Positions 1,560-44,304 of a stretch of DNA of 64,000 bases are shown piece by piece. The position numbers and the translations under genes were made by a program. Source of the DNA: Candidatus Kuenenbacteria bacterium (lineage in GTDB: Bacteria; Patescibacteriota; Patescibacteriia; UBA2196; GWA2-42-15). A model generated the notes under the pieces. The model saw nothing but the letters and a program-made list of their open reading frames with translations, did no database searches and had not been told where the DNA came from. Position 1 is the first letter of the stretch, and each line of letters begins with the position of its first letter. The stretch spans positions 12,815 through 76,814 of the forward strand of contig JAAZOM010000006.1 in the NCBI GenBank assembly GCA_012797775.1. The letters are read 5' to 3'.

Positions 1560-2519
1560 ATGAAGATTATTAAACGCTTTTATTCATTTGATGGCACTGT
1601 AAAATATTTACTGCAGTTAGAAGACAATTCAATTATTGAAACCGTTTTCTACCCATATTCCAGAATATCTAGCTTAATAATCAAATTAATTTTTTGGGGG
1701 AGCTACTTCAAAATACCCTATTTCCTCTATAATTTTTCCCCATTAAAATTTTTATATCAACACACAGATTTTTATGGTATTTGTATCTCTTCTCAGATCG
1801 GCTGTGCGCTTGGTTGCAAGTTTTGTGCCACCGGTAAACAGAGTTTTGTTCGCAATCTCACCACTGAGGAGATAATAGCCCAGGTAGTTACTGTCCTTAA
1901 TGATTATCAACCAAAAAATATAAAAAAAATTGAAATAACCTTCGCTGGCATGGGTGAGTCACTATTAAATTATCAAAATGTCACCGCGGCTATTAAGGAA
2001 TTTCCTCTTCGGCTAAAAAAATTTGGTATTGAGGAAATAATTAATTCTCTCATGACCGTTGGCATTTTATCTGGATTGTCCGAGCTCATTAAAGACAAGA
2101 TAATCCTGAACCTTTTTATTTCTTTACATTCTGTTTCTGATGAATTAAGATCAAAATTAATGCCGATAGGCGAGACTTTAAAGATCAGAGAAATTTTAGA
2201 GCTGGCGGCCGAATATCAAAAAGAAACAAATGCTCGCCCTGTCAGACTAAACTATACCCTAATAAAAGGTATTAATGACAGCGAAAGAGATGCCCAAAAA
2301 TTAGCCGATCTATCAAAAGAATTTGGATTCATTGCTCAGATAAAAATGTTCAATCCTGTTATTGACCTGCCTTATCAGCGAGTTTCTTTGCCAGCGTTAA
2401 AAAAGTTTTTGAAAATCCTTAAAACCTCAAGTGCCGGCTACGTGTTTGATATTAGCAAGGGTATCAGTAATACTTCAGGCTGTGGGCAATTAAAATATCA
2501 TTATAATAAAATTAATTAA
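1560..2519 (+). CDS. rlmN: Radical SAM 23S rRNA/tRNA adenine-C2 methyltransferase, RlmN/Cfr family.
   Basis: DGTVKYLLQLEDNSIIETV block followed by the GCALGCKFCATG CxxxCxxC cluster, then AGMGESL and other RlmN-like blocks. Start taken at ATG 1560 just after the rseP stop. A roughly 40-aa low-complexity insertion sits before the Cys cluster. Confidence 0.8.
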   Translation: MKIIKRFYSFDGTVKYLLQLEDNSIIETVFYPYSRISSLIIKLIFWGSYFKIPYFLYNFSPLKFLYQHTDFYGICISSQIGCALGCKFCATGKQSFVRNLTTEEIIAQVVTVLNDYQPKNIKKIEITFAGMGESLLNYQNVTAAIKEFPLRLKKFGIEEIINSLMTVGILSGLSELIKDKIILNLFISLHSVSDELRSKLMPIGETLKIREILELAAEYQKETNARPVRLNYTLIKGINDSERDAQKLADLSKEFGFIAQIKMFNPVIDLPYQRVSLPALKKFLKILKTSSAGYVFDISKGISNTSGCGQLKYHYNKIN

Positions 2520-2524
2520 AATCT

Positions 2525-3748
2525 ATGCGCCAATCACAACTTTTCACCAAAACCAAAAAAGAATTTGCCAAAGACGAGGAATCAATCAATGCCAAGCTTC
2601 TAATCAAAGCTGGTTTTATCGATAAATTAATGGCTGGCAGTTACACCTTTTTACCGCTGGGTCTTCGGGCCTTGGTCAAGATTGAAAATATTATCCGCGA
2701 AGAGATGAATGCCGCCGGTTGTCAGGAAATTTTGATGCCCGCCCTCCACCCCAAGGAAAATTGGGTCAAGACCGGTCGCTGGGATGGTATTCATGAGATT
2801 CTCTTCAAATTGCAGGGCGTTCGCGGCAGTGAGTTTACTCTCGGGCCAACCCACGAAGAAATTGTTACCCCCCTGGCCAAACAGTACATTTTTTCCTATA
2901 AGGATCTGCCCTTTGCTGTTTACCAAATTCAAAGTAAATTTAGAAATGAGGCCCGGGCCAAATCCGGACTTCTGCGCGGTCGGGAATTCCGCATGAAAGA
3001 TGTTTATTCTTTTCATGCCAACGAAAAAGATCTGGAAGATTTTTATGAGCGCATGGCCAAGGCTTACGAACGGGTTTGGGCTAGGCTATCTCTCGGCGAT
3101 ATCACTTACAAGACATTTGCTTCTGGCGGCAGTTTTTCCAAGTATTCTCACGAGTATCAGACTGTTTGTGAGTCTGGCGAAGACGAGGTTTATCTTTGTG
3201 AAAAATGTCGTCTGGGCATCAATAAAGAGATTATCGCCGAGCAAGACTCTTGCCCTGAGTGCGGCAACAAAAAGTTGATCAAAAAGAATGGCATTGAGGT
3301 CGGCAATATTTTTCAACTTAAAACCAAGTACTCCGAGCCATTTAAGCTGGTTTATCAAGATGAAAAAGGTGGTAATAATTTGGTGCAAATGGGTTGCTAC
3401 GGCATTGGTCCTTCGCGCTTGATGGGCACTATTGTGGAGGTCTTTCATGACGACAAGGGCATGATCTGGCCAGAGGCTGTAGCGCCCTTCAAATATCATT
3501 TGCTAAATTTGTCAAAAGAGGGTAAGGTAAAGAAACAGGCTGAAGATATTTACGCCAAATTGGCGGCTAGGGGCGAGGAAATTCTCTATGATGACCGCTC
3601 CGAGAGCTCTCCCGGAGAAAAACTCCAAGACGCTGACCTTCTTGGTCTACCCACAAGACTCGTCGTCTCTGACAAGACGGATAATAAAATAGAAGTTAAA
3701 AAAAGAGTCTCTAAAAATGTTGACTTGAAAAATTTTAATAATTTATAA
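2525..3748 (+). CDS. proS: Prolyl-tRNA synthetase of bacterial type that lacks the INS editing domain and carries a small C4 zinc-ribbon insertion.
   Basis: MRQSQLFTKTKKE...AGSYTFLPLGLRALVKIENIIREEM...GRW and GREFRMKDVYSFH (motif 2) align with ProRS. MGCYGIGPSRL is motif 3. The CEKC...CPEC insert is the zinc ribbon. At 407 aa the protein is too short to contain an editing domain. Confidence 0.8.
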   Translation: MRQSQLFTKTKKEFAKDEESINAKLLIKAGFIDKLMAGSYTFLPLGLRALVKIENIIREEMNAAGCQEILMPALHPKENWVKTGRWDGIHEILFKLQGVRGSEFTLGPTHEEIVTPLAKQYIFSYKDLPFAVYQIQSKFRNEARAKSGLLRGREFRMKDVYSFHANEKDLEDFYERMAKAYERVWARLSLGDITYKTFASGGSFSKYSHEYQTVCESGEDEVYLCEKCRLGINKEIIAEQDSCPECGNKKLIKKNGIEVGNIFQLKTKYSEPFKLVYQDEKGGNNLVQMGCYGIGPSRLMGTIVEVFHDDKGMIWPEAVAPFKYHLLNLSKEGKVKKQAEDIYAKLAARGEEILYDDRSESSPGEKLQDADLLGLPTRLVVSDKTDNKIEVKKRVSKNVDLKNFNNL

Positions 3749-3753
3749 TTTTC

Positions 3754-4794
3754 ATGTTGAACAGTGTATTCAAAAATATCAGACCTGATATTGGCATTGA
3801 TCTTGGCACCAGTAATACCCTCGTTTATATCAAAGGCAAGGGTATTGTTGTTAATGAACCATCCGTTGTCGCCATCAATACCAGAACTGATCAGGTTTTG
3901 GCCATTGGCGAAGATGCCAAAAGGATGGTCGGCAAGACACCCAGCCACATTATTACTTCCAAACCTTTGGTGGAAGGGATAATTTCTGATTTTGAAGTGG
4001 CGGAACAAATGCTCAAATATTTTATCAATAAATTTGTCGGCAATAAGCTTGGATTTTTTTCCGGCAAGCCGCGTATTGTTATTGGTATACCGCTCGATGT
4101 TACCGAGGTGGAGAGAAAAGCAGTCGAAGATGCCGCTCTCGGCGCTGGCGCCAAGGAGGTTTTCCTAGTTGAAGAGCCCATGGCCGCCGCTATCGGCGCT
4201 CGCCTGCCCGTCCAGGAGTCCACTGGCAATATGGTAGTGGATATTGGGGGCGGCACGACCCAGATTGCCGTTATTTCACTCTCTGGTATTGTCGCCTGGA
4301 AGTCACTGCGTCTAGCCGGTGATACCTTGAATAAAAATATTATTCAATATATTAGAGAAAATTTTAATCTTTTAATTGGTGACACAACAGCAGAAAAAAT
4401 AAAAATTGCCATTGGATCTGTTTTTGCTTCTGATCGGCCGGTTGAAATGGCTGTTAGCGGCCGTGATCTTATCAACGGTTTGCCCAAAGAGATTGTTATT
4501 TCTGATAGTGAAGTGCGAGAAGCGATCAGCCGTAGCGTTAGGACCATCGTCAGTAGTATCAAATCAACAATAGAATCCACTCCACCCGAGTTGGTAGCTG
4601 ATATTTATAAGCGCGGCATAGTCCTTTCTGGCGGTGGGGCCCTCTTGCGTGGGCTCGATTCTCTTATCGGCCAGGAAACGCGCATCCCCGTTGCAATTAT
4701 TGATGATCCGCTGACTTGTGTTGTGCGTGGGACTGGCCTAGTTTTAGAAGATTTAGAAAACCTCAAGGACGTCTTACTGCCTTCTACAAAATAA
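3754..4794 (+). CDS. mreB: Rod shape-determining actin homologue MreB.
   Basis: IGIDLGTSNTLVYIKGKGIVVNEPSVVAI at the N-terminus, plus DIGGGTT and LSGGGALLRGLD motifs. Confidence 0.92.
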   Translation: MLNSVFKNIRPDIGIDLGTSNTLVYIKGKGIVVNEPSVVAINTRTDQVLAIGEDAKRMVGKTPSHIITSKPLVEGIISDFEVAEQMLKYFINKFVGNKLGFFSGKPRIVIGIPLDVTEVERKAVEDAALGAGAKEVFLVEEPMAAAIGARLPVQESTGNMVVDIGGGTTQIAVISLSGIVAWKSLRLAGDTLNKNIIQYIRENFNLLIGDTTAEKIKIAIGSVFASDRPVEMAVSGRDLINGLPKEIVISDSEVREAISRSVRTIVSSIKSTIESTPPELVADIYKRGIVLSGGGALLRGLDSLIGQETRIPVAIIDDPLTCVVRGTGLVLEDLENLKDVLLPSTK

Positions 4795-36432: not shown

Positions 36433-37977
36433 TTATGTTGCGTTTTTTCTTCCAAACAAATATTTTTTGTAATTTTCACTCTGCCTCCAGACTGGTGCCA
36501 AAATTCTTGGATGCACTGCTCTGGGGCCATTTTGGATCGTATCAGCTATTTCCTCCACTGTGTATTGCCCATAGACATAGGCATTTAAAAGCGTTGGCCA
36601 ACTGATTTTCGATCCCCACACCTTACCACTGCCAATGAGTTTTGTCAAGGTAGTTTTCAATTCTTGTGCCTTCTTTTTCTCTATCTCCAAAGGCAATTTC
36701 AACTGCCCATAATTTTTATCTCTTTCTCCGATTTTAAAGCGATAATATTTCAAGGTATTCTTATTGCCAGACTGGTCGAGCATCAGCCCTAGATTATTAA
36801 AAACAACCAAATCACCCCTATTAATTATGGTTATTTTTGGGCTGACTGTTTCTGTCGGTATATTTATCATTCTCTCCTGAAAAAGAAATTTCATATCACC
36901 AAAATAATTATCCGCTAGCAAAAGCTCGGCCATATTGGAAAAAGAAATATCATCATGATAGCGCGGCTCACGCCCACTGACTGTGGCGTGATATTCCAGT
37001 CTGTCTGGATGATCTCGGTCTGAAAAAAATCTGTCGCCCCAAGCATAATTTAAATAAGTAGAAAAATCGGCATAGCCAAAACGATAATTCAAGATTCCCG
37101 CTCCCAGATAAAACTGTGCCCCCAGCCCCACTGGCCGGATTCCAATGCTTGCCTCCACCATCCCATTTTTGAAAGTTATCGCCCGGAGGTTTTCTGCCAT
37201 TTTTTTACTTAAGTTCAAAATCTGCTGATCGCTCGTCAAGTCTCCATAAATCATGAGCGCTGTGGCTGTCACCAGATGATAGTGGGGGTTGAAGGCCATT
37301 GGCTTGCCCTCTTCATACCAGCCACTATTTATGTCCTCTTTTATCACTTTCTCGATTTTGTTTTTTATTAATTTATCAAAATATTGTTTTCTGTCTGCTG
37401 TTAGAAAAGTCTTTGCATAAAAATTATTCACCACGGCCTGCCAGTATACTGCCGACAGCGCCGCCCGGTTGGAAGTATCATCGGCCAAAATTCCCGCTTC
37501 TATTCTTTCATAAACCGTTTGATAAAGTTGACTTTTTTCTTCAGTGGTCAAAATATCTGGCAACTGGTCAGCTAGTCGTACCAGAGCAAAGGCGGCAAAG
37601 GCCTCAGAAAAAGACTGGCTTTGAACCAAGCGGTTGGCCAGAGCCACCCGGCAGCCAAGCATGCTTTGGCGCAATTTTTCTCTGGCTATATTATCACCAG
37701 CCAAAGCGCGGTATTTATAATAAAGTCCCAGGCTGATTATTTCTCTGGGTTCGCCCGGCGTGGTAAATTCTGGCGCGCCATAGTCTGGGGCCTGGTAAAC
37801 AAAACCAAAATTGTCCAAGTGTCGGCTATAGCGATTATAAAAATAGGACAGATATTTTTCCAAAGACAAATCATTTTCTGCCGCCTTGGTTTTTGGTGTG
37901 CTAATAAAAAAATTACCAGCGACGATTAGGGCTAGTAAGGTTATAATAGAGGTAGTGTGCAAATACTTGGATAACAT
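36433..37977 (-). CDS. Hypothetical secreted protein, 514 aa.
   Basis: N-terminal signal/TM segment. No recognisable motifs. Confidence 0.5.
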   Translation of the reverse strand: MLSKYLHTTSIITLLALIVAGNFFISTPKTKAAENDLSLEKYLSYFYNRYSRHLDNFGFVYQAPDYGAPEFTTPGEPREIISLGLYYKYRALAGDNIAREKLRQSMLGCRVALANRLVQSQSFSEAFAAFALVRLADQLPDILTTEEKSQLYQTVYERIEAGILADDTSNRAALSAVYWQAVVNNFYAKTFLTADRKQYFDKLIKNKIEKVIKEDINSGWYEEGKPMAFNPHYHLVTATALMIYGDLTSDQQILNLSKKMAENLRAITFKNGMVEASIGIRPVGLGAQFYLGAGILNYRFGYADFSTYLNYAWGDRFFSDRDHPDRLEYHATVSGREPRYHDDISFSNMAELLLADNYFGDMKFLFQERMINIPTETVSPKITIINRGDLVVFNNLGLMLDQSGNKNTLKYYRFKIGERDKNYGQLKLPLEIEKKKAQELKTTLTKLIGSGKVWGSKISWPTLLNAYVYGQYTVEEIADTIQNGPRAVHPRILAPVWRQSENYKKYLFGRKNAT

Positions 37978-38041
37978 AATTTTATTCTAACAAATGATGA
38001 GAAATAAAAAAAGCCCCAGGCGTAGCGCCAAGGGCTTATCG

Positions 38042-38137
38042 TCAGGGGATACAGTAGAGGCTGACACAAATTGCCAAAATTCCATAGGCAATAATTATTA
38101 CCAAACCCACAACGGTTCCCCAATTATACTTTTTCAC
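38042..38137 (-). CDS. Small membrane peptide (31 aa, GTG start).
   Basis: AGGAGG ribosome-binding site 4 nt before GTG. MKKYNWGTVVGLVIIIAYGILAICVSLYCIP. Confidence 0.3.
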   Translation of the reverse strand: MKKYNWGTVVGLVIIIAYGILAICVSLYCIP

Positions 38138-38151
38138 TGTGCCTCCTTATT

Positions 38152-38268
38152 TTATATTGACCCGAGCCACAGCATTGCTCCGCCAACGACAATTGCTAAT
38201 AATGCCGCCAGCAGGAGAATCTCCCCAAAATCGAGCTGCAATAGTTTATCAAAAAATTTTTCTATCAT
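38152..38268 (-). CDS. Small membrane peptide (38 aa).
   Basis: AAGGAGGTGGG ribosome-binding site before the ATG. MIEKFFDKLLQLDFGEILLLAALLAIVVGGAMLWLGSI. Lies directly downstream of trxB. Confidence 0.45.
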   Translation of the reverse strand: MIEKFFDKLLQLDFGEILLLAALLAIVVGGAMLWLGSI

Positions 38269-38360
38269 GCCCACCTCCTTTTTGTTGTTTATTTTTCTCC
38301 TTACTATATATTAAAAGCAAAATAAAAACAAGGGCCATGAGCCCCTGTCTTTAAATTAAG

Positions 38361-39278
38361 CTATTTTTTCAGGATATATTCATAGGCCGAGAGTGCCGCC
38401 TTTACTCCATCGCCAGCCGAGATATTATTTTGCTTATAGGCCTCATCCGTCACATCACCGGCCGCAAAAATACCAGGCATGGAGGTGGCTGAAGTCCGGT
38501 GATCCAAAACTATTTCTCCGCCGCTATTCAATTCCACCAGATCTTTGACCAAATCCGAATTAGGGACTGCGCCTATTTCTACAAATACACCTTGAACAGC
38601 CAGGGTTTTTCCTTCACCCGTCAGTCGGTCTTTGTATTTTAGGCCATTGACCAACTGTTCGCCAGTGATTTCTGTTGTCTCGGCATTATAAATCACACCT
38701 TTAAAATTTTCAGCACTTTGGATTTTTTCCAGGGTGCTCGGATCGCCTTTTATCTTGTCAGAATAATTTAAAAGATAAACCTCGCTGACATAAGGCAACA
38801 AATCTTGGACTGCCTCGAGTCCGGAATTCCCGCCGCCCACCACCGCCACTACCTTGCCGCGAAACATCGGCGCATCGCAGGTAGAACAATAAGCCACGCC
38901 CTTGCCGTCAAATTCCGCTTCGCCCAAAACATTCAATTTTCTATGCCTAGCGCCTGAGCAGACTATGACCGTTCTGGTTTCATAGGAGCTGGTATTGGTC
39001 GTGACCCGAAAGCCATTAGTGATCTTTTCTACCAGTTGAGCCCTCTCACCCTCTTTTATTTCTATTCCTTCTTGCGCTTTTAGGTGCTCTTCCAGATCTT
39101 TGGCCAATTGTATTCCGGCAATAGATTTGTGTCCGATCCAATTGCCAATGTCATCAGATACCACTGACTGACCGCCAAAACCCTCGGTTATAAATAAAGC
39201 TTTCATTTTTTTTCTGGCCGCATAGACTCCGGCCGAGACTCCGGCTGGTCCGCCGCCAATGATGATTGTATCATACAT
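38361..39278 (-). CDS. trxB: Thioredoxin-disulfide reductase.
   Basis: GGGPAG FAD-binding site. CSTC redox-active disulfide where CATC is the more usual form. GGGNSG NAD(P)H-binding site. Confidence 0.85.
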   Translation of the reverse strand: MYDTIIIGGGPAGVSAGVYAARKKMKALFITEGFGGQSVVSDDIGNWIGHKSIAGIQLAKDLEEHLKAQEGIEIKEGERAQLVEKITNGFRVTTNTSSYETRTVIVCSGARHRKLNVLGEAEFDGKGVAYCSTCDAPMFRGKVVAVVGGGNSGLEAVQDLLPYVSEVYLLNYSDKIKGDPSTLEKIQSAENFKGVIYNAETTEITGEQLVNGLKYKDRLTGEGKTLAVQGVFVEIGAVPNSDLVKDLVELNSGGEIVLDHRTSATSMPGIFAAGDVTDEAYKQNNISAGDGVKAALSAYEYILKK

Positions 39279-39397
39279 AAAATTATAAAGCTTAATTAGA
39301 GTATCTTTATCATATAACGCTTTATCTTTTTTTTCAAGAAAAAACGCCGGCTCTTTTTTGCTAAAGAGTCCAGCGTTCAGGTAGGGCTAGGGAAGAC

Positions 39398-39682
39398 CTA
39401 TCTCGGTACTGTCCCTCGCCCACTGCACTTTTTGCAGGGGCCGACAGGGCGCTCAGCATCGTCCGGCCAGTCTGAACCCCCGCCGCCACAATCAGGGCAG
39501 TCGCTAAGCTCCGTCCCATCGGGCCAGGGCGGGACATCAAGCTTCCCGTCCCCACCACAGACGGTGCATTTCTCGTCGCCCCACATTCCGTCACCCGAGC
39601 AGGTGACACAACTGGCCTGCTTACAGCCGGCTACAAAAGCAACCAGCAGCAAGGCCACGAAGACAACCATTAATTTTTTCAC
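39398..39682 (-). CDS. Lipoprotein with four CxxCxGxG (DnaJ CR-type zinc-finger-like) repeats.
   Basis: GTG start with an AGGAGG ribosome-binding site. Lipobox LVAFVAGC. Repeats CVTCSGDG, CTVCGGDG, CPDCGGGG and CKKCSGRG. Coding sequence is about 62 percent GC. Confidence 0.55.
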   Translation of the reverse strand: MKKLMVVFVALLLVAFVAGCKQASCVTCSGDGMWGDEKCTVCGGDGKLDVPPWPDGTELSDCPDCGGGGSDWPDDAERPVGPCKKCSGRGTVPR

Positions 39683-39860
39683 TAAATCCTCCTGTTGTTT
39701 TGGTTTTTAGGATTCGTGAAAAGTTACCATATTTTTATCTCTTTGTCAATCATTACCCAAAATAATAAAAACAAGCCGACCACTATAATGATTTTTTTTC
39801 AAGAAAAAACAACCGCTGGTTTATCAGCAGTTGTTTTTTTGAACTTCTATCTGAAGAAGT

Positions 39861-40115
39861 TTATTGCCCTATGCGATTTCTATTCATCTGGCAGCCACCG
39901 CCACACTGGCAGGTTTTGCCTTCTTTTCCGCAATTGCCCCCGCAAGCAGAGTTTGCTCCGCAACCACAGGTAGCAGCTTGCACCACATTAGCATTATTGG
40001 CGCCGACTTGGACGCCCGCTGGGGCTGAATTTTGGCTGGCCGCGCTGGCAACGCTAAAGATCACCACTGCCATTACCAGAGCTATAAAGCCTCCCAAAAA
40101 CCAAAGTTTATTCAT
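39861..40115 (-). CDS. Secreted Cys-rich peptide (84 aa precursor).
   Basis: Signal peptide followed by TCGCGANSACGGNCGKEGKTCQCGGGC. A terminator lies downstream. Confidence 0.5.
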   Translation of the reverse strand: MNKLWFLGGFIALVMAVVIFSVASAASQNSAPAGVQVGANNANVVQAATCGCGANSACGGNCGKEGKTCQCGGGCQMNRNRIGQ

Positions 40116-40182
40116 ATGCTAGGTTTATTAGTTTTTAATTGGGCCCTCTATACACTAATACGCACTTCGCCTAGCTTTTATT

Positions 40183-40917
40183 TCAATGTTGGCAATTGCC
40201 ATCGCAATTTTTGGGTTTTAGGCAGCCGCCACAGCCACACCAAGGGCGGATTTCCTCGGCCGTAAACTGGTTTTCTAGGGTTATATCGCCGATAATTTTT
40301 ATACGTTCGCCAATTTTTAAAATTGCATCGTTTTGTACATTGGCGGTGAGTGCGTTGATCTGCCAGTGATCTCCACTCAAATCCTGCAAGATAAAGCCAT
40401 TTTTGGTGATCGCCACTATTTCTCCGGCCAAAAGACCCTGGTCAGTCTTTTGCCACAGTCGGTGCTCATAATTCAGCTGAGCATAGCCAGGCAATTTTTC
40501 GTTAAAAATATTATTTAATTTGTAGCCAAGCCCAAAATTATAAATCAAAATCCCCAAAATTACCGTTGCCAACAAATAAAAAATTATCAGTCTGGCCAGG
40601 GGCAGGCGATAGCCAAATTTGGTATTTTTATAATTATAATAACCCAACCCAACAAAAACCACTAAAGCTGCCAGCCAGAAATATGGCAAGGTTAGGAGTA
40701 AGATTTTTCCAAAGTTCATTTCAATCCGTTGGTAGATGTCCCATTCCTGATTGGCCAAAATAAATATTGATATCCCGACCGCGAGCGCACCAAAAATTAT
40801 TGACAACCCAAACAAAAACCAAAGCAATAAATTTTTTGCCCGAAGATTTGATTTCGGCGTTGGTTTTAGCCCTTGATCTTTTATAGTTTCTAATATTTTA
40901 TCACTTATTTGGCTCAT
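40183..40917 (-). CDS. Membrane protein, putative anti-sigma factor, with a Cys-rich C-terminus.
   Basis: Overlaps the ECF sigma gene by 17 nt. Has about four TM helices. The C-terminus WCGCGGCLKPKNCDGNCQH shares the CGCGG..C.GNC motif with the 39861-40115 peptide. Confidence 0.5.
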   Translation of the reverse strand: MSQISDKILETIKDQGLKPTPKSNLRAKNLLLWFLFGLSIIFGALAVGISIFILANQEWDIYQRIEMNFGKILLLTLPYFWLAALVVFVGLGYYNYKNTKFGYRLPLARLIIFYLLATVILGILIYNFGLGYKLNNIFNEKLPGYAQLNYEHRLWQKTDQGLLAGEIVAITKNGFILQDLSGDHWQINALTANVQNDAILKIGERIKIIGDITLENQFTAEEIRPWCGCGGCLKPKNCDGNCQH

Positions 40918-41491
40918 AGTATTCAGGATTAATTTTAATAAACTCTTCTTTAAATTTTCTTCTAGCCCTGGCGATCAGCGTCCCGACGGTACTAACCGGC
41001 AAACGCAGAATGTCGGAAATTTCTCGATAGTCCAGCTCTTCCACAAAGCGCAAAATAAAAATTTCTCGATATTTTTCTCCCAGCCGGCTGATTATTTTTT
41101 CCAACATCGCCCGGTCATATTTGGTATTTATTTCTTTATTCAGATCAGTATCAGCCGTTATCTTTTGCCATTCCTCGTCATCGAGTATTATCTGTGGCCG
41201 CGCTTGTCTTTTGCGCAGTTCACTCACTGTTTCATTGTGGGCGATCCGGTAAGCCCAAGAAGAAAATTTTAGCTTATCATCAAAATCATTAAGGTTATAA
41301 AAAATTTTTATAAAAACCTCCTGCAAAACATCTTCGGCGTCCTCTTGACCGAGACCTGATATTCTCCGAACATAAACCAACAGCTGTCTTTCATAGCGTT
41401 TTATTAGACAAGCAAAATAATCGGCGCTCTTGAGAGACAGAGCGACGAGTTCATTATCCGAGAGCTGTATACAGCTTTCCTGAGTGACCAT
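40901..41491 (-). CDS. ECF-type RNA polymerase sigma-70 factor.
   Basis: Region 2 (EDVLQEVFIKIFYNLNDF...SWAYRIAHNE) and region 4 (DYREISDILRLPVSTVGTLIARARRKFKE). Confidence 0.8.
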   Translation of the reverse strand: MVTQESCIQLSDNELVALSLKSADYFACLIKRYERQLLVYVRRISGLGQEDAEDVLQEVFIKIFYNLNDFDDKLKFSSWAYRIAHNETVSELRKRQARPQIILDDEEWQKITADTDLNKEINTKYDRAMLEKIISRLGEKYREIFILRFVEELDYREISDILRLPVSTVGTLIARARRKFKEEFIKINPEYYEPNK

Positions 41492-41600
41492 ATTAATTAT
41501 AATACGTGTTAGGCCTTAATTTTATTTCAGGTTGCTTTATCATAACATAAATTTTTGTTTCCAAAAATCCCGCCCTGAGGCGGGATAATTTTTTGGATTA

Positions 41601-41671
41601 TCGGGGCGCGGGGAATTGAACCCCGGCTACAAGACCCCCAGCCTTGCGTACTACCGTTATACGACGCCCCG
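41601..41671 (-). tRNA. tRNA-Pro (anticodon GGG), with no encoded CCA.
   Basis: Manual fold: CGGGGCG/CGCCCCG acceptor stem, CAAGG-CTGGGGG-TCTTG anticodon arm, CGGGG-TTCAATT-CCCCG T arm. Total 71 nt. Confidence 0.7.
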
Positions 41672-41926
41672 GTAAAAAATTAATTTAAAAGCCCCAAAGC
41701 AACCATTCCTCAATCTAGTTCCTATTGGGAAACCGGTACGCTCCAAACTGTTAAGGCCAGCGGAGAATATCACTCATAGGGAACAAAACAATAATATCAT
41801 TTTGTCCTTAAAGGGAAATCTGCCCGGTGAACCGCAATCCCGAAACTTTTCGGGAAATACGAGTTGCCAAAAGAACTGATTGTCGAACATAGAAAAAGGA
41901 AATCAAGTGCGCTCTGGGGCAAGGGT

Positions 41927-41955
41927 ATTATAACATCAAAAAAACAAGAAATCAA
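41927..41955 (-). promoter_or_regulatory. Sigma70 promoter TTGATT-17-TATAAT on the minus strand.
   Basis: The reverse complement reads TTGATTTCTTGTTTTTTTGATGTTATAAT. It would yield a roughly 245-nt leader ahead of tRNA-Pro. Confidence 0.5.
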
Positions 41956-42086
41956 CAATGAACAAAAGCACAAAATCCCAAATCCAAAATCCAAAATAAA
42001 TCACAATTCTCAATAAGCAATACCCAAGTCAATCTATGTTTTGGAATTTGTGATTTGAAATTTATTTTGAGCTTGGAACTTGGAAT

Positions 42087-42533
42087 TTAATTATCAATCA
42101 ACCTTTGTTTCCGCCGTTCAAATTCCTTTTTCTTTATACTTTCCCGCTTGTCAAATTTCTTTTTGCCCCGCCCCACTCCGATTTCTAGTTTGATCAGCCC
42201 GCCCTTCAAATAAACCTTCAAAGGCACAATCGTGATGCCCGGCTCGCGTGATTTGCCAAAAAGATATTTCAACTGTTTTTTATGCAAGAGCAATGACCGG
42301 TTTTGATATGGATCATAGTCTTTTTGGTATATTGCCGCTGGCTTGTAAGGAGCGACATGCGCCTTTATCAGAAAAGCACTACTCGTACCATCGAGACCAA
42401 CGTATGATCCCTTAAGATTAATTTGTCCTTTTTTTATAGATTTTGCCTCTGGTCCAGACAACGCCAAGCCAGCCTCAAGCGTCTCGAGGATCTCATAATC
42501 AAAATATGCTTTTTTATTATCAGCAATAGACAT
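42087..42533 (-). CDS. smpB: SsrA-binding protein SmpB.
   Basis: NKKAYFDYEILETLEAGLALSGPEAKSIKKGQINL, and later ...LLLHKKQLKYLFGKS, followed by a basic C-terminal tail. Confidence 0.88.
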   Translation of the reverse strand: MSIADNKKAYFDYEILETLEAGLALSGPEAKSIKKGQINLKGSYVGLDGTSSAFLIKAHVAPYKPAAIYQKDYDPYQNRSLLLHKKQLKYLFGKSREPGITIVPLKVYLKGGLIKLEIGVGRGKKKFDKRESIKKKEFERRKQRLIDN

Positions 42534-42591
42534 ACACCCTTTTATTATACCAAACTTTACTATATAATAAATTCAGAATTAAGTTTCAGCT

Positions 42592-44304
42592 ATGACTATC
42601 AAAGATACCCTAAAAAAGCAAATTAATCAAGCTGTTTCCAAACAATATCGCCTAGTCGGCCTTGGTTTCAACGTTGATTATCCTCCCTCCGTTGAGCTCG
42701 GCGATTATTCCACCAACGTTGCGCTGATGCTTGGCCACCAATTTAAAAAGAATCCTCTTGATATTGCAGCAGGGCTGGCCAAAGAATTATCTACTCATAA
42801 AATGTGGCGGCTGGTTTCCGTTGCTCCGCCAGGCTTTATCAATTTTTATTTGGATAATCATTGGGCCGCCAGGCAGCTATCTGTTGTTGCCAGAGAGGGG
42901 ACCAAATATGGCAGTAGTCGTCTTGGCCGGAACCAGACAGTAGTCATTGATTATTCCTCCCCAAATATTGCCAAAAAAATGCACGTCGGCCACCTACGCT
43001 CTACCGTCATTGGCGCCGCTATTTGTAATTTATATAAATTTCTCGGCTACAAAGTCATCAGCGACAACCATCTCGGTGATTGGGGCACGCAGTTTGGCAA
43101 GTTGATCTATGAATACAAGCAGATCTATGGCCACAAAATCAAGAAAAATATTACCGTCGAAGAGATGGAGTCTCTTTATTTGGGTTTTCACCAAAAAGCC
43201 AAAGAAAATCCTGTGTTAGAAGAGGAGGCCAGAAAGGAACTCAAAAAACTTCAGGACAAAGAAAGGTTCAATTATCAGCTCTGGCAGCTTTTTTATCAGG
43301 TGAGCCTCAAAGAATTTAGAAAAGTTTATAATTTGCTCGGAGTTAAATTTAATTATTGGCACGGCGAAAGCTTTTACCACCCCATGCTTGCCGCCATTGT
43401 TGATGAATTGTTGAGAAAGGGTGTCGCTCAAAAAAGTGAGGGGGCAATTATTATAAATTTGTCTGACCTTGGCCTGCCGCCCCTAATGATCCAAAAATCA
43501 GACAGTGCTTATCTCTATGGCACTTCGGATTTGGCTACTATCAAATATCGCCGCTCTCATTTTCACCCCGTCAAGAACATTTATGTTGTCGCCAACCAGC
43601 AAGCCCTTCATTTTGAACAGTTGTTCAAGGCGAGCTCCCTCGCTGGCTATCACGACAAAGAAGATATGGTACACGTAAAATTTGGCTTGATCCTCGGCGC
43701 CAACGGCAAAAAAATGTCTACCAGAGAAGGCGAAGTAGCCGACCTTATAAAGATGATCGAAGAGGGGATCTCTAAGGCGAGAAAAATTATTAAAGAAAAA
43801 AATAAAAAACTCTCCGGCCGGAAGTTGGATCAGATAGCCAAACAAATCGCTCTTGGTGCTATCAAATACAATGATCTTTCCCAAAACCGTCTAACAGACA
43901 TTGTTTTTGATTGGAACAAAATGTTGAACTTTGAATCTGGCTCTGCTCCTTACTTGCAATATACTTATGTTCGCATACAAAGTATTTTCAAAAAAGCCCC
44001 GCGTTCAAAAAATAAAAAAATAGATTATAAAATACTTATTGAACTCTCGGAGACTCAGCTCATAAGAGATATTATAAAATTTCCCGAAGTCATAGAGTCT
44101 GCCGCTTTGGAGTATAAGCCAAATGTCGTTGCCCTTTATCTCACCGAACTTTCCGGAGACTTTCATTCTTTTTATGAAAAGATAGCAGTTCTCTCGGCCG
44201 ATAAAAAATTACAGCAGGCCAGACTCGCCCTCCTTCGGGCGGTTTCTGTTGTTATGAAAAATGGGCTGGCCCTACTCGGCATAGAGGCGCCCGAACAGAT
44301 GTAG
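42592..44304 (+). CDS. argS: Arginyl-tRNA synthetase.
   Basis: Class I HVGH motif (NIAKKMHVGHLRSTVIG) and the KMSTR region (GKKMSTREG). Length 570 aa. Confidence 0.9.
   Translation: MTIKDTLKKQINQAVSKQYRLVGLGFNVDYPPSVELGDYSTNVALMLGHQFKKNPLDIAAGLAKELSTHKMWRLVSVAPPGFINFYLDNHWAARQLSVVAREGTKYGSSRLGRNQTVVIDYSSPNIAKKMHVGHLRSTVIGAAICNLYKFLGYKVISDNHLGDWGTQFGKLIYEYKQIYGHKIKKNITVEEMESLYLGFHQKAKENPVLEEEARKELKKLQDKERFNYQLWQLFYQVSLKEFRKVYNLLGVKFNYWHGESFYHPMLAAIVDELLRKGVAQKSEGAIIINLSDLGLPPLMIQKSDSAYLYGTSDLATIKYRRSHFHPVKNIYVVANQQALHFEQLFKASSLAGYHDKEDMVHVKFGLILGANGKKMSTREGEVADLIKMIEEGISKARKIIKEKNKKLSGRKLDQIAKQIALGAIKYNDLSQNRLTDIVFDWNKMLNFESGSAPYLQYTYVRIQSIFKKAPRSKNKKIDYKILIELSETQLIRDIIKFPEVIESAALEYKPNVVALYLTELSGDFHSFYEKIAVLSADKKLQQARLALLRAVSVVMKNGLALLGIEAPEQM

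Follow-up and report, generated by a model that had tools for sequence, protein, structure and literature searches.

Predicted autoregulated sigma factor module with a Cys-tailed membrane protein and a Cys-rich peptide in Candidatus Kuenenbacteria

A stretch of 64,000 nt of the Candidatus Kuenenbacteria contig JAAZOM010000006.1 (GCA_012797775.1), hereafter the window, carries genes for an extracytoplasmic function (ECF) sigma factor, a membrane protein with three transmembrane (TM) helices, a short Cys-rich peptide and a CxxCxGxG lipoprotein. These genes and their neighbours all lie on the minus strand. A first-pass annotation, made from the letters alone, had proposed that the four form one envelope-stress module, in which the membrane protein is an anti-sigma factor and sensor that shares a Cys motif with the peptide. 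The four open reading frames (ORFs) were found at the positions it had given, and the three peptide strings that it quoted were exact in the sequence. In the deposited genome, the membrane protein (GYA54_00895) and the peptide (GYA54_00890) are both labeled 'hypothetical protein'. Our analysis supported a unit of three genes, sigma factor, membrane protein and peptide, whose features are these:

41500..41529, minus strand: promoter P1, SigW-like, TGAAATAAAA-N13-CGTATTA, before the sigma gene and ending 8 nt ahead of its ATG
40901..41491, minus strand: ECF sigma gene, 196 aa, with Sigma70_r2 and r4_2 domains
40183..40917, minus strand: gene for the three-TM membrane protein (putative anti-sigma factor and sensor), 244 aa, overlapping the sigma gene by 17 nt
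40183..40242, minus strand: C-terminal tail of the sensor, WCGCGGCLKPKNCDGNCQH, with five Cys and a terminal His, plus the stop codon; variable across the family
40156..40185, minus strand: promoter P2, TGAAATAAAA-N13-CGTATTA, overlapping the sensor stop codon, before the peptide gene
40141..40149, minus strand: purine-rich palindromic element AGAGGGCCC in the 5' leader of the peptide gene, about 30 nt before the ATG
39861..40115, minus strand: Cys-rich peptide gene, 84 aa, 67 nt past the membrane-protein gene and followed by hairpins and a T-run
39801..39860, minus strand: these hairpins and T-run, the probable terminator of the sigma-sensor-peptide unit, with a terminator-like site at 39815-39828

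The sigma protein matched Sigma70_r2 (PF04542) at 1.4e-16 and r4_2 (PF08281) at 2.4e-15 in Pfam, without a match to r3. It scored 106 bits against TIGR02937 (sigma70-ECF superfamily), for which the cut-off is 42.9. The presence of the sigma-2 and sigma-4 regions and the absence of sigma-3 place it, by sequence, in the ECF (group 4) sigma-70 factors. Its nearest solved structure is Bacillus subtilis SigW (5wuq, E 3.5e-22). As judged from these matches, the sigma factor is the sole member of the module that belongs to a family of known kind.

We compared 128 loci fetched from genome and metagenome collections (L numbers below), in a locus scan with an alignment of 14 closer sequences. Of the 119 loci that held both genes, 118 had the sigma gene directly upstream of the membrane-protein gene and on its strand, with a gap of -56 to +111 nt and usually of 3-6 nt. 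The same pairing was seen in all eight further loci fetched by exact protein look-up. The sigma/membrane-protein pair of the first-pass annotation was thus borne out as a conserved arrangement. We found no paper on the membrane-protein family or on ECF systems in Patescibacteria or Parcubacteria, and the ECF reclassification paper makes no mention of Parcubacteria, TGAAAC or DUF5666.

The membrane-protein family comprises at least 74 clusters, from Patescibacteria, Atribacterota, Caldithrix and Desulfobacterales bins. It had no relative in Pfam or NCBIfam, nor in PDB by a profile sequence search. The alignment showed a conserved N-terminal helix, in which I12 and P19 are invariant, three hydrophobic segments, and a strongly conserved YxxRHTKxGYR loop between segments 2 and 3. 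These are followed by a domain with the conserved pattern GLLAGxI...W...IKIIG...F.A.EIRPW and then by a variable tail, which is Cys-rich only in certain lineages. Counting K+R gave 6 for the N-terminal segment, 2 for loop 1 and 3 for loop 2. Together with the three hydrophobic segments, these counts indicated an N-in, C-out topology under the positive-inside rule.

An AlphaFold2 model of the membrane protein (mean pLDDT 84.6, pTM 0.74) contained a helix at residues 2-15, TM helices at 22-55, 79-97 and 107-127, helices in 130-154, a five-strand OB barrel at 162-225 and a disordered tail. Foldseek comparison of the model with PDB returned generic OB folds only (E ~0.02). The Cys tail, which follows the OB-fold domain, is predicted to be extracytoplasmic from hydropathy, the positive-inside rule and the model. 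The first-pass annotation had assumed this location, and a cytoplasmic tail, which could not meet a secreted protein, was not what the predictions gave.

From synteny and topology we infer that the membrane protein is an anti-sigma factor. The indirect indications are that the two genes adjoin in 118 of 119 loci and overlap by 17 nt here, and that the cytoplasmic helix and the loop are conserved. Two known classes were tried and rejected. The class I anti-sigma domain (ASDI; zf-HC2/RskA type) gave no match in Pfam or NCBIfam, and the protein has a single helix (2-15) before its first TM segment, not a four-helix domain of about 80 residues. Membership of the NrsF/DUF1109 family was rejected because there was no DUF1109 match and the TM helices number three, not six.

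In two related loci, a small gene of the Peptidase_M50 (site-2 protease) family follows the peptide gene (L002, 5445..6032; L130, 4427..5011). Its position may be a by-product of synteny with rpsL and rpsG, or the protease may have a bearing on how the sensor is processed.

P1 and P2 are the same 30-nt element, first noticed by eye. The pattern TGAAAT-N16-18-CGTAT occurred twice in the 64 kb, against 0.13 matches expected, and the two matches were exactly P1 and P2. With a much looser pattern they were still the sole matches in the window. The promoter type recognized by SigW is TGAAAC-N16-CGTA, and the SigW-like type of P1 and P2 agrees with SigW as the closest solved relative of the sigma factor. 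P1 accordingly reads as a predicted autoregulatory ECF promoter (AAC-N16/17-CGT type) upstream of the sigma gene. The first-pass annotation had suggested looking for such promoters upstream of the Cys-rich genes; P2 stands directly upstream of one of them, the peptide gene, which is predicted to be a direct target of the sigma factor. No ECF motif was present in the window before the lipoprotein gene or the thioredoxin reductase gene.

The layout of two sites, one before the sigma gene and one at or just after the membrane-protein stop codon, was found in at least 19 distinct Patescibacteria loci with any type of tail, and also in L133, L135 and L136. In the subclade of L129 and L134, both sites carried the variant [TC]GCAAYAAA-N13-CGTAATA, which is what a co-evolving sigma factor and promoter would produce.

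The same subclade showed a palindromic operator-like sequence, cATACTAAnTTAGTaT, beside a TTGAC box. It lies before the peroxiredoxin gene in L129 (~4100-4190), and before the superoxide dismutase gene and the sigma operon in L134 (~1400-1460 and ~3190-3250). Its placement hints at a redox regulator of the ECF module in this subclade. The palindromic operator of L129 and L134 was absent from the window.

Other loci showed further promoter arrangements. A third copy of the ECF promoter precedes a gene of about 590 aa of the HlyD/CusB membrane-fusion family in L024 (5383..7158) and L038 (5392..7161), where the predicted regulon would extend to an efflux system. The equivalent position in L025 (6331..8196) and L028 (5593..7464) is taken by a 620-aa HlyD-like gene, in neither case with a promoter copy detected before it; of these two genes, the Pfam scan covered that of L025 only. 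Atribacterota loci (L003, L010, L016 and about 70 others) have a single ECF promoter about 840 bp upstream of the sigma gene, before an extra gene. The product of the latter, about 235 aa long, has a signal peptide, and its C-terminal half is multi-TM and contains His; it had no Pfam match. Loci of this layout have no partner gene downstream.

In the window, 8 nt separate the -10 element of the sigma promoter from the ATG (41489..41529), without a Shine-Dalgarno sequence, and the same spacing was seen in many loci. This suggests that the sigma mRNAs of the family are leaderless or nearly so. The ATG of the peptide gene also lacks a Shine-Dalgarno sequence. The position of its palindromic leader element is taken in other loci by GAGGCCTC, GAAGCTTC, AAGCGCTT, AGAGCTCT or TAGGACCTA. 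The palindrome changes yet stays palindromic (GGGCCC included) and is followed by an AATT...ATTAAC stretch; it is kept in L001, L002, L006, L078, L129-L132, L135 and L136. Rfam, run over 38000-42600, returned tRNA-Pro only and placed the element in no known RNA family. From its sequence it could be an operator, a Shine-Dalgarno-like site that stabilizes the mRNA, or an RNA element.

The peptide begins with a conserved hydrophobic stretch (MNKLWFLGG...), continues with a low-complexity linker and includes a 27-aa module with seven Cys; TCGCGANSACGGNCGKEGKTCQCGGGC lies after the hydrophobic stretch. The Cys are spaced CxC-x5-C-x3-C-x6-CxC-x3-C. The N-terminus may be a signal peptide, with a possible cleavage site at ASA/A, or a signal anchor. 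Among 5.8 billion proteins there were four matches to the peptide, and an exhaustive profile search of 1.84 billion gave seven representatives. None of these was named, and by this measure the peptide appears to be a tiny orphan family. There was no match above threshold in Pfam or NCBIfam. A homologue of known, unrelated function would have spoken against the role beside the sensor that the first-pass annotation had suggested; the few relatives offered none.

Several identities were tried for the peptide and rejected. As a bufferin (BufA; DUF2282, BUF_6/12Cys), it gave no family match, and no DUF692 (MNIO) or DUF2063 gene was among the called neighbours in any locus. It matched no metallothionein model, the resemblance being one of composition alone. 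A SCIFF/ranthipeptide precursor would be expected beside a radical-SAM gene, and there was no adjacent one in the window or in 12 other loci; that of L131 is about 3 kb upstream on the opposite strand. A type IV prepilin-like or double-glycine leader was rejected from the position of the GG, inside the hydrophobic core, and the lack of Glu at +5.

The mean Cys content of the large ORFs of the window is 1.16%. Counts per 30 residues rise to 5 Cys in the sensor, 7 in the peptide and 5 in the lipoprotein; neither the sensor nor the peptide has a Cys outside its terminal module. The first-pass annotation had given the three Cys-rich genes about 60% GC. This holds for the lipoprotein gene only (60.4%, with 64% at third codon positions, GC3); the peptide gene has 52% and the membrane-protein gene 40% (tail 51%), in a window of 42%. 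The moderate rise in the peptide gene and the sensor tail fits their Cys, Gly and Ala codons, whereas the GC3 of the lipoprotein gene points to a different origin.

The lipoprotein gene and the features that surround the unit are listed here:

39327..39791, minus strand: 465-bp strain-specific insertion with an exact empty site in L138, containing a promoter, a Shine-Dalgarno sequence, the lipoprotein gene and a terminator-like end
39810..39792 and 39345..39327, minus strand: 19-bp direct repeat GTTTTTTCTTGAAAAAAAA flanking the insertion, from the alignment of the window with L138
39749..39721, minus strand: promoter of the insertion, TTGACA-N17(TGn)-TAACTT, sigma-70-type, read by eye and unlisted in the promoter scan
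39398..39682, minus strand: CxxCxGxG lipoprotein gene, 94 aa, inside the insertion
38361..39278, minus strand: thioredoxin-reductase/AhpF-like gene, TIGR01292 at 1.2e-82
41671..41601, minus strand: tRNA-Pro(GGG), followed by a terminator hairpin, upstream of the sigma gene

Within the insertion, an AGGAGG Shine-Dalgarno sequence stands 5 nt before the GTG start of the lipoprotein gene. No integrase or transposase gene adjoins the insertion, and strains with identical neighbouring proteins differ in its presence. The membrane protein is 100% identical in L137, L138 and L139. The lipoprotein is present in L137 and absent from L138 and L139, in which the reductase gene comes directly after the peptide gene. 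It is also absent from all other related loci; in L001, the thioredoxin reductase gene comes directly after the peptide gene. A search of 5.8 billion proteins found no homologue of the lipoprotein other than itself. Because it is absent beside identical sensor proteins, has no ECF promoter and differs in GC, the lipoprotein gene is a later, recent and unrelated insertion that lies outside the module, contrary to its inclusion in the first-pass annotation.

The lipoprotein contains four exact CxxCxGxG units (CVTCSGDG, CTVCGGDG, CPDCGGGG and CKKCSGRG). It scored 24.9 bits against PF00684 (DnaJ_CXXCXGXG), for which the gathering score is 32.7. A hydrophobic segment and a lipobox, VAGC (consensus L-[AS]-[GA]-C), in MKKLMVVFVALLLVAFVAGC, read by eye, mark it as a predicted bacterial lipoprotein. 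An AlphaFold2 model made without an alignment had a pLDDT of 51 and was uninformative. The four repeats are the number that forms two zinc centres in the Cys-rich domain of DnaJ. Unlike DnaJ and anti-TRAP, the lipoprotein is below threshold in Pfam and matches anti-TRAP weakly, is predicted to be extracytoplasmic, has no J domain and has no homologues.

Other Cys-rich ORFs were seen near the module. In L132, what lies between the peptide and thioredoxin reductase genes, where the window has the lipoprotein gene, is an unrelated 53-aa ORF with 13 Cys and no signal peptide (MADQCVKCSLPLNEENKCSCNGELCFHCCECGPDCGCGCAGKKDGG...; 1578..1739, plus strand). It had no family match, its exact sequence was missing from the protein collection, and the gene caller had taken a 54-aa ORF of the other strand in its place. 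L030 (5674..6402, a Parcubacteria bin) and L035 (5350..6081, a Falkowbacteria bin) encode lipoproteins of 242-243 aa, with 35-38 Cys, downstream of the sigma-sensor pair. Each is followed by a conserved 75-aa membrane protein, and they had no Pfam match. Cys-rich genes may tend to gather near the module, to judge from L132, L030 and L035. Downstream of the thioredoxin reductase gene, the window has a 514-aa ORF (36433..37977, minus strand) with an N-terminal signal anchor and no match in Pfam or NCBIfam; an ORF of 512-516 aa holds the same position in L132, L137 and L138.

The tail of the sensor and the product of the gene behind the second promoter varied together. Loci were divided into a Cys-tail class with at least three Cys in the sensor tail (14 loci) and a class with 0-2 Cys (18 loci). 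In 13 of the 14 Cys-tail loci, the second promoter is followed by a partner of 66-95 aa with a hydrophobic N-terminus, a low-complexity linker and 6-10 Cys. All 18 loci of the other class have a secreted helical-repeat partner of 124-228 aa with 0-3 Cys, 5-15 Met and a Gly/Met/His-rich end. The association of tail and partner had a Fisher p of 4e-8, with relatedness ignored. The partners of the sister clades had no significant Pfam match, the best being a weak Metal_resist at E 0.23.

After the conserved Trp, the tails read WCGCGGCL..C..C.H in one clade, GQGRFMMGGNR in Atribacterota, and GPPPPPMFFQP or C..C.LIHRP.MMKEN..R.RIIN in other Patescibacteria. The number of Cys varies, from 3 to 7 in tails and from 6 to 10 in peptides. 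In a neighbour-joining tree of the sensor core domain, the main WCGC group was monophyletic, and L131 and P0055/L133 were placed elsewhere. In these two as well, a Cys tail goes with a Cys peptide, whose sequence is quite different. CxC (mostly CGC) is common to tails and peptides in all three lineages. Across these three lineages of the tree, and across deep divergence, Cys tails and Cys peptides occur together in all Cys-tail loci but one (13 of 14).

We interpreted these results, tentatively and at somewhat less than even confidence, as an autoregulated ECF module in which the external thiol/His tail senses an oxidant (alternatively a thiophilic metal) and the induced peptide is a sink or buffer that provides negative feedback. 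The sensing of metal or redox state and the role of the peptide as decoy or ligand, as put forward in the first-pass annotation, are possible readings in line with the data. As predicted from the promoters, the sigma factor and the three-TM protein would be co-transcribed from an ECF-type promoter, a second copy of which would drive the peptide gene. The membrane protein would hold the sigma factor through its 15-residue N-terminal helix and the conserved cytoplasmic loop, and the external thiol/His tail would be the sensor. Oxidation of the thiols, for instance when an anaerobe is exposed to oxygen or reactive species, would alter the sensor and free the sigma factor; alternatively, a thiophilic metal that occupies the tail thiols would be the trigger. 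The freed sigma factor would amplify its own operon and strongly induce the peptide. The peptide would locally concentrate thiols of the same chemistry at the membrane surface and, as a sacrificial sink or buffer, relieve the sensor and close a negative feedback.

We lean to an oxidant over a metal as the trigger on account of the neighbouring genes and of the anoxic, sulfidic life that these organisms lead. A thioredoxin reductase gene comes after the peptide gene in the window, L001, L132 and L138. Genes for a peroxiredoxin and a superoxide dismutase lie directly downstream in L129, and one for a superoxide dismutase in L134. The operator that L134 has before both its sigma operon and its dismutase gene points to an oxidant as well, as does the precedent of MrpX in Azospira, described below.

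Several points weigh against this interpretation. The nearby redox genes have no ECF promoter and have sigma-70-type promoters and terminators of their own, and their linkage may be positional only. The membrane protein matches no recognized anti-sigma domain, and its cytoplasmic part is much shorter than a class I domain. AlphaFold2 gave no confident structure for the tail (pLDDT <50 for residues 234-244). Most of the co-variation comes from one monophyletic clade, and one locus, L021, pairs a Cys tail with a one-Cys helical partner. Finally, the His beside the last tail Cys, the CxC motifs, the metallothionein-like composition and the variable number of Cys suit metal coordination at least as well as a disulfide switch.

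The same architecture might accordingly respond to a thiophilic metal (Cu(I), Zn, Cd or Hg), which would bind the tail and free the sigma factor, with the peptide as a membrane-tethered, metallothionein-like sink that competes with the sensor. We consider this possible, though doubtful. The Cys module of the peptide, in which 7 of the 27 residues (26%) are Cys, lacks aromatics and is rich in Gly, Ala, Asn and Lys; CxC occurs in tail and peptide in all three lineages; and a His is at or beside the last Cys in nearly every tail. Neither the number of Cys nor its parity is conserved, which thiolate clusters fit better than fixed disulfides. In sister clades, the partners end in Met/Gly/His-rich tails such as GMFGPMGHMGGRGMG, resembling the Met-rich motifs that bind Cu(I), and the third ECF promoter precedes the HlyD/CusB-type membrane-fusion gene. 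On the other hand, the sulfidic, anoxic habitats in which these organisms are typically found contain few free soft-metal ions. None of the metal-binding families, metallothionein and heavy-metal-associated ones included, was matched above threshold, the sole weak Metal_resist match (E 0.23) being to a sister-clade partner, and in the Cys clade no metal efflux or resistance gene is linked, the neighbours there being redox enzymes. Precedents for a metal exist in SigF-NrsF, which is activated by Cr and Cd (PMC3511200), and in the bufferins, which are SigF-regulated and bind copper (PMC11626156).

The resemblance of tail and peptide might also have no functional meaning. The tail would then be a structural knot (disulfide or zinc) that stabilizes the OB domain, the peptide an ordinary regulon member, and their co-occurrence the result of shared descent in one clade. 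The monophyly of the main WCGC clade, which makes most of the 13 co-occurrences non-independent, the low-complexity Cys/Gly sequences, in which short motif matches come easily, and the exception of L021 all favour such a view. We nevertheless think it improbable, since the pair persists where identity of the sensor core has fallen to about 30% and reappears on the L131 and L133 branches outside the main clade, with peptides that are very different yet CxC-rich, and since the non-Cys tails with Met-rich partners in sister clades suggest that tail and partner change together. A signalling role is less probable still: the peptide would be a ligand or bioactive product read by the sensor tail, in a feed-forward autoinduction like that of lantibiotic-sensing ECF or quorum-type circuits. 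It is driven by the sigma factor and has a signal sequence, the motif common to tail and peptide could mean homotypic recognition, a Peptidase_C39 gene is nearby in one locus (L135), and GG at peptide residues 8-9 is conserved. This GG, however, is within the hydrophobic segment, unlike that of double-glycine leaders; the 13 loci have no dedicated gene for export, modification or immunity in common; and the sister-clade equivalent is a helical protein of 124-228 aa, not a peptide. The full version in the first-pass annotation, one extracytoplasmic Cys network of sensor, peptide and CxxCxGxG lipoprotein, is hardly tenable. The three Cys-dense genes do adjoin, and the 13-Cys ORF in the same slot of L132 and the 35-38-Cys lipoproteins downstream in L030 and L035 are in line with it. 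The empty-site alignment largely refutes it: the cassette is absent from L138 and L139, where the sensor is identical, and from every other locus, and its gene has no ECF promoter, a foreign GC and no homologue among the 5.8 billion proteins.

A broader proposal, which we hold to be rather unlikely as a whole, is that across the family a direct action of the sigma-induced partner on the sensor makes partner and sensor tail evolve as matched pairs. Cys/CxC tails would be matched with Cys/CxC peptides, and Met/Pro/Gly tails with the Met/Gly-rich tails of partners. The partner could act as a competitive mimic of the tail for the OB domain, through a shared metal cluster, or by disulfide exchange with the tail. 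With the minimal, single-helix anti-sigma domain, this would be an undescribed ECF feedback design and the main envelope-stress circuit of Patescibacteria and Atribacterota.

The closest functional analogues of the module would be SigF-NrsF with MrpX or the bufferins. NrsF is a polytopic anti-sigma factor with a 25-residue N-terminal cytoplasmic segment and two functional periplasmic Cys (PMC3511200). In Azospira, SigF-NrsF induces MrpX, a Met-rich periplasmic peptide that is a sacrificially oxidized hypochlorite sink (PMC4436054); the Met-rich partners of the sister clades here resemble it in composition. Both systems have a polytopic membrane partner with a short cytoplasmic N-terminus (about 25 residues in NrsF). 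The extracytoplasmic Cys, essential in SigF-NrsF to keep the sigma factor inactive, are predicted in ours, as is a small autoregulated regulon, from the promoters. The main output in both is an exported small protein rich in an oxidizable, metal-binding residue (Met in MrpX, Cys in bufferins; Sec-exported there). The differences are also clear. There is no sequence relation to NrsF, which has six TM helices against three TM helices and an OB domain here, and its sensor Cys are in loops rather than in a C-terminal tail. Unlike SigF-NrsF loci, those studied here have no methionine sulfoxide reductase and no MNIO/DUF2063 genes nearby, and the hosts are Patescibacteria, not Proteobacteria.

The module shares with SigW-RsiW of B. 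subtilis the closest sigma factor by sequence and autoregulation. The SigW regulon includes the HlyD-type YknX, and in sister clades here an HlyD-family gene lies behind the third promoter. RsiW is a single-pass class I zinc anti-sigma factor that is removed by PrsW and RasP proteolysis. The membrane protein of the window differs in the lack of a class I domain, and with its three TM helices, cleavage of the classical site-2 type is less evident.

In the Cpx and Zra systems, an extracytoplasmic accessory protein induced by the pathway feeds back on the membrane sensor (CpxP on CpxA, ZraP on ZraS), and the input of Zra and of Cnr (CnrX-CnrY-CnrH) is metal. The accessory proteins of Cpx, Zra and Cnr are folded helical proteins of defined families, whereas in the peptide here a flexible tether carries a 27-residue Cys module, and the sister-clade partners are without a significant Pfam match. 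CorE-type ECF sigma factors sense the metal or redox state with a short Cys-rich C-terminal extension. That domain is on the sigma factor and cytoplasmic; here it is on the membrane partner, predicted outside, and mirrored by a co-encoded peptide. The Cys module of the peptide is like metallothioneins in its ~26% Cys, CxC motifs, small polar residues and lack of aromatics. It is unlike them in having no family match, in being predicted to be exported or membrane-tethered rather than cytoplasmic, and in its size of only 27 residues with 7 Cys.

The genomes of Patescibacteria are very small and encode few regulators, and hardly anything is known of how these bacteria sense their surroundings. 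The module described here is conserved across Patescibacteria and Atribacterota, and pairs a SigW-like sigma factor with a membrane partner outside every described anti-sigma class. Its regulon is readable and compact: the sigma operon and one secreted partner, plus an efflux adaptor in some clades. The module would provide a simple orthogonal set of sigma factor, anti-sigma factor and promoter. The pairing of tail and peptide offers a testable hypothesis of how obligate anaerobes with little redox machinery may detect and buffer oxidants or thiophilic metals at the cell surface.

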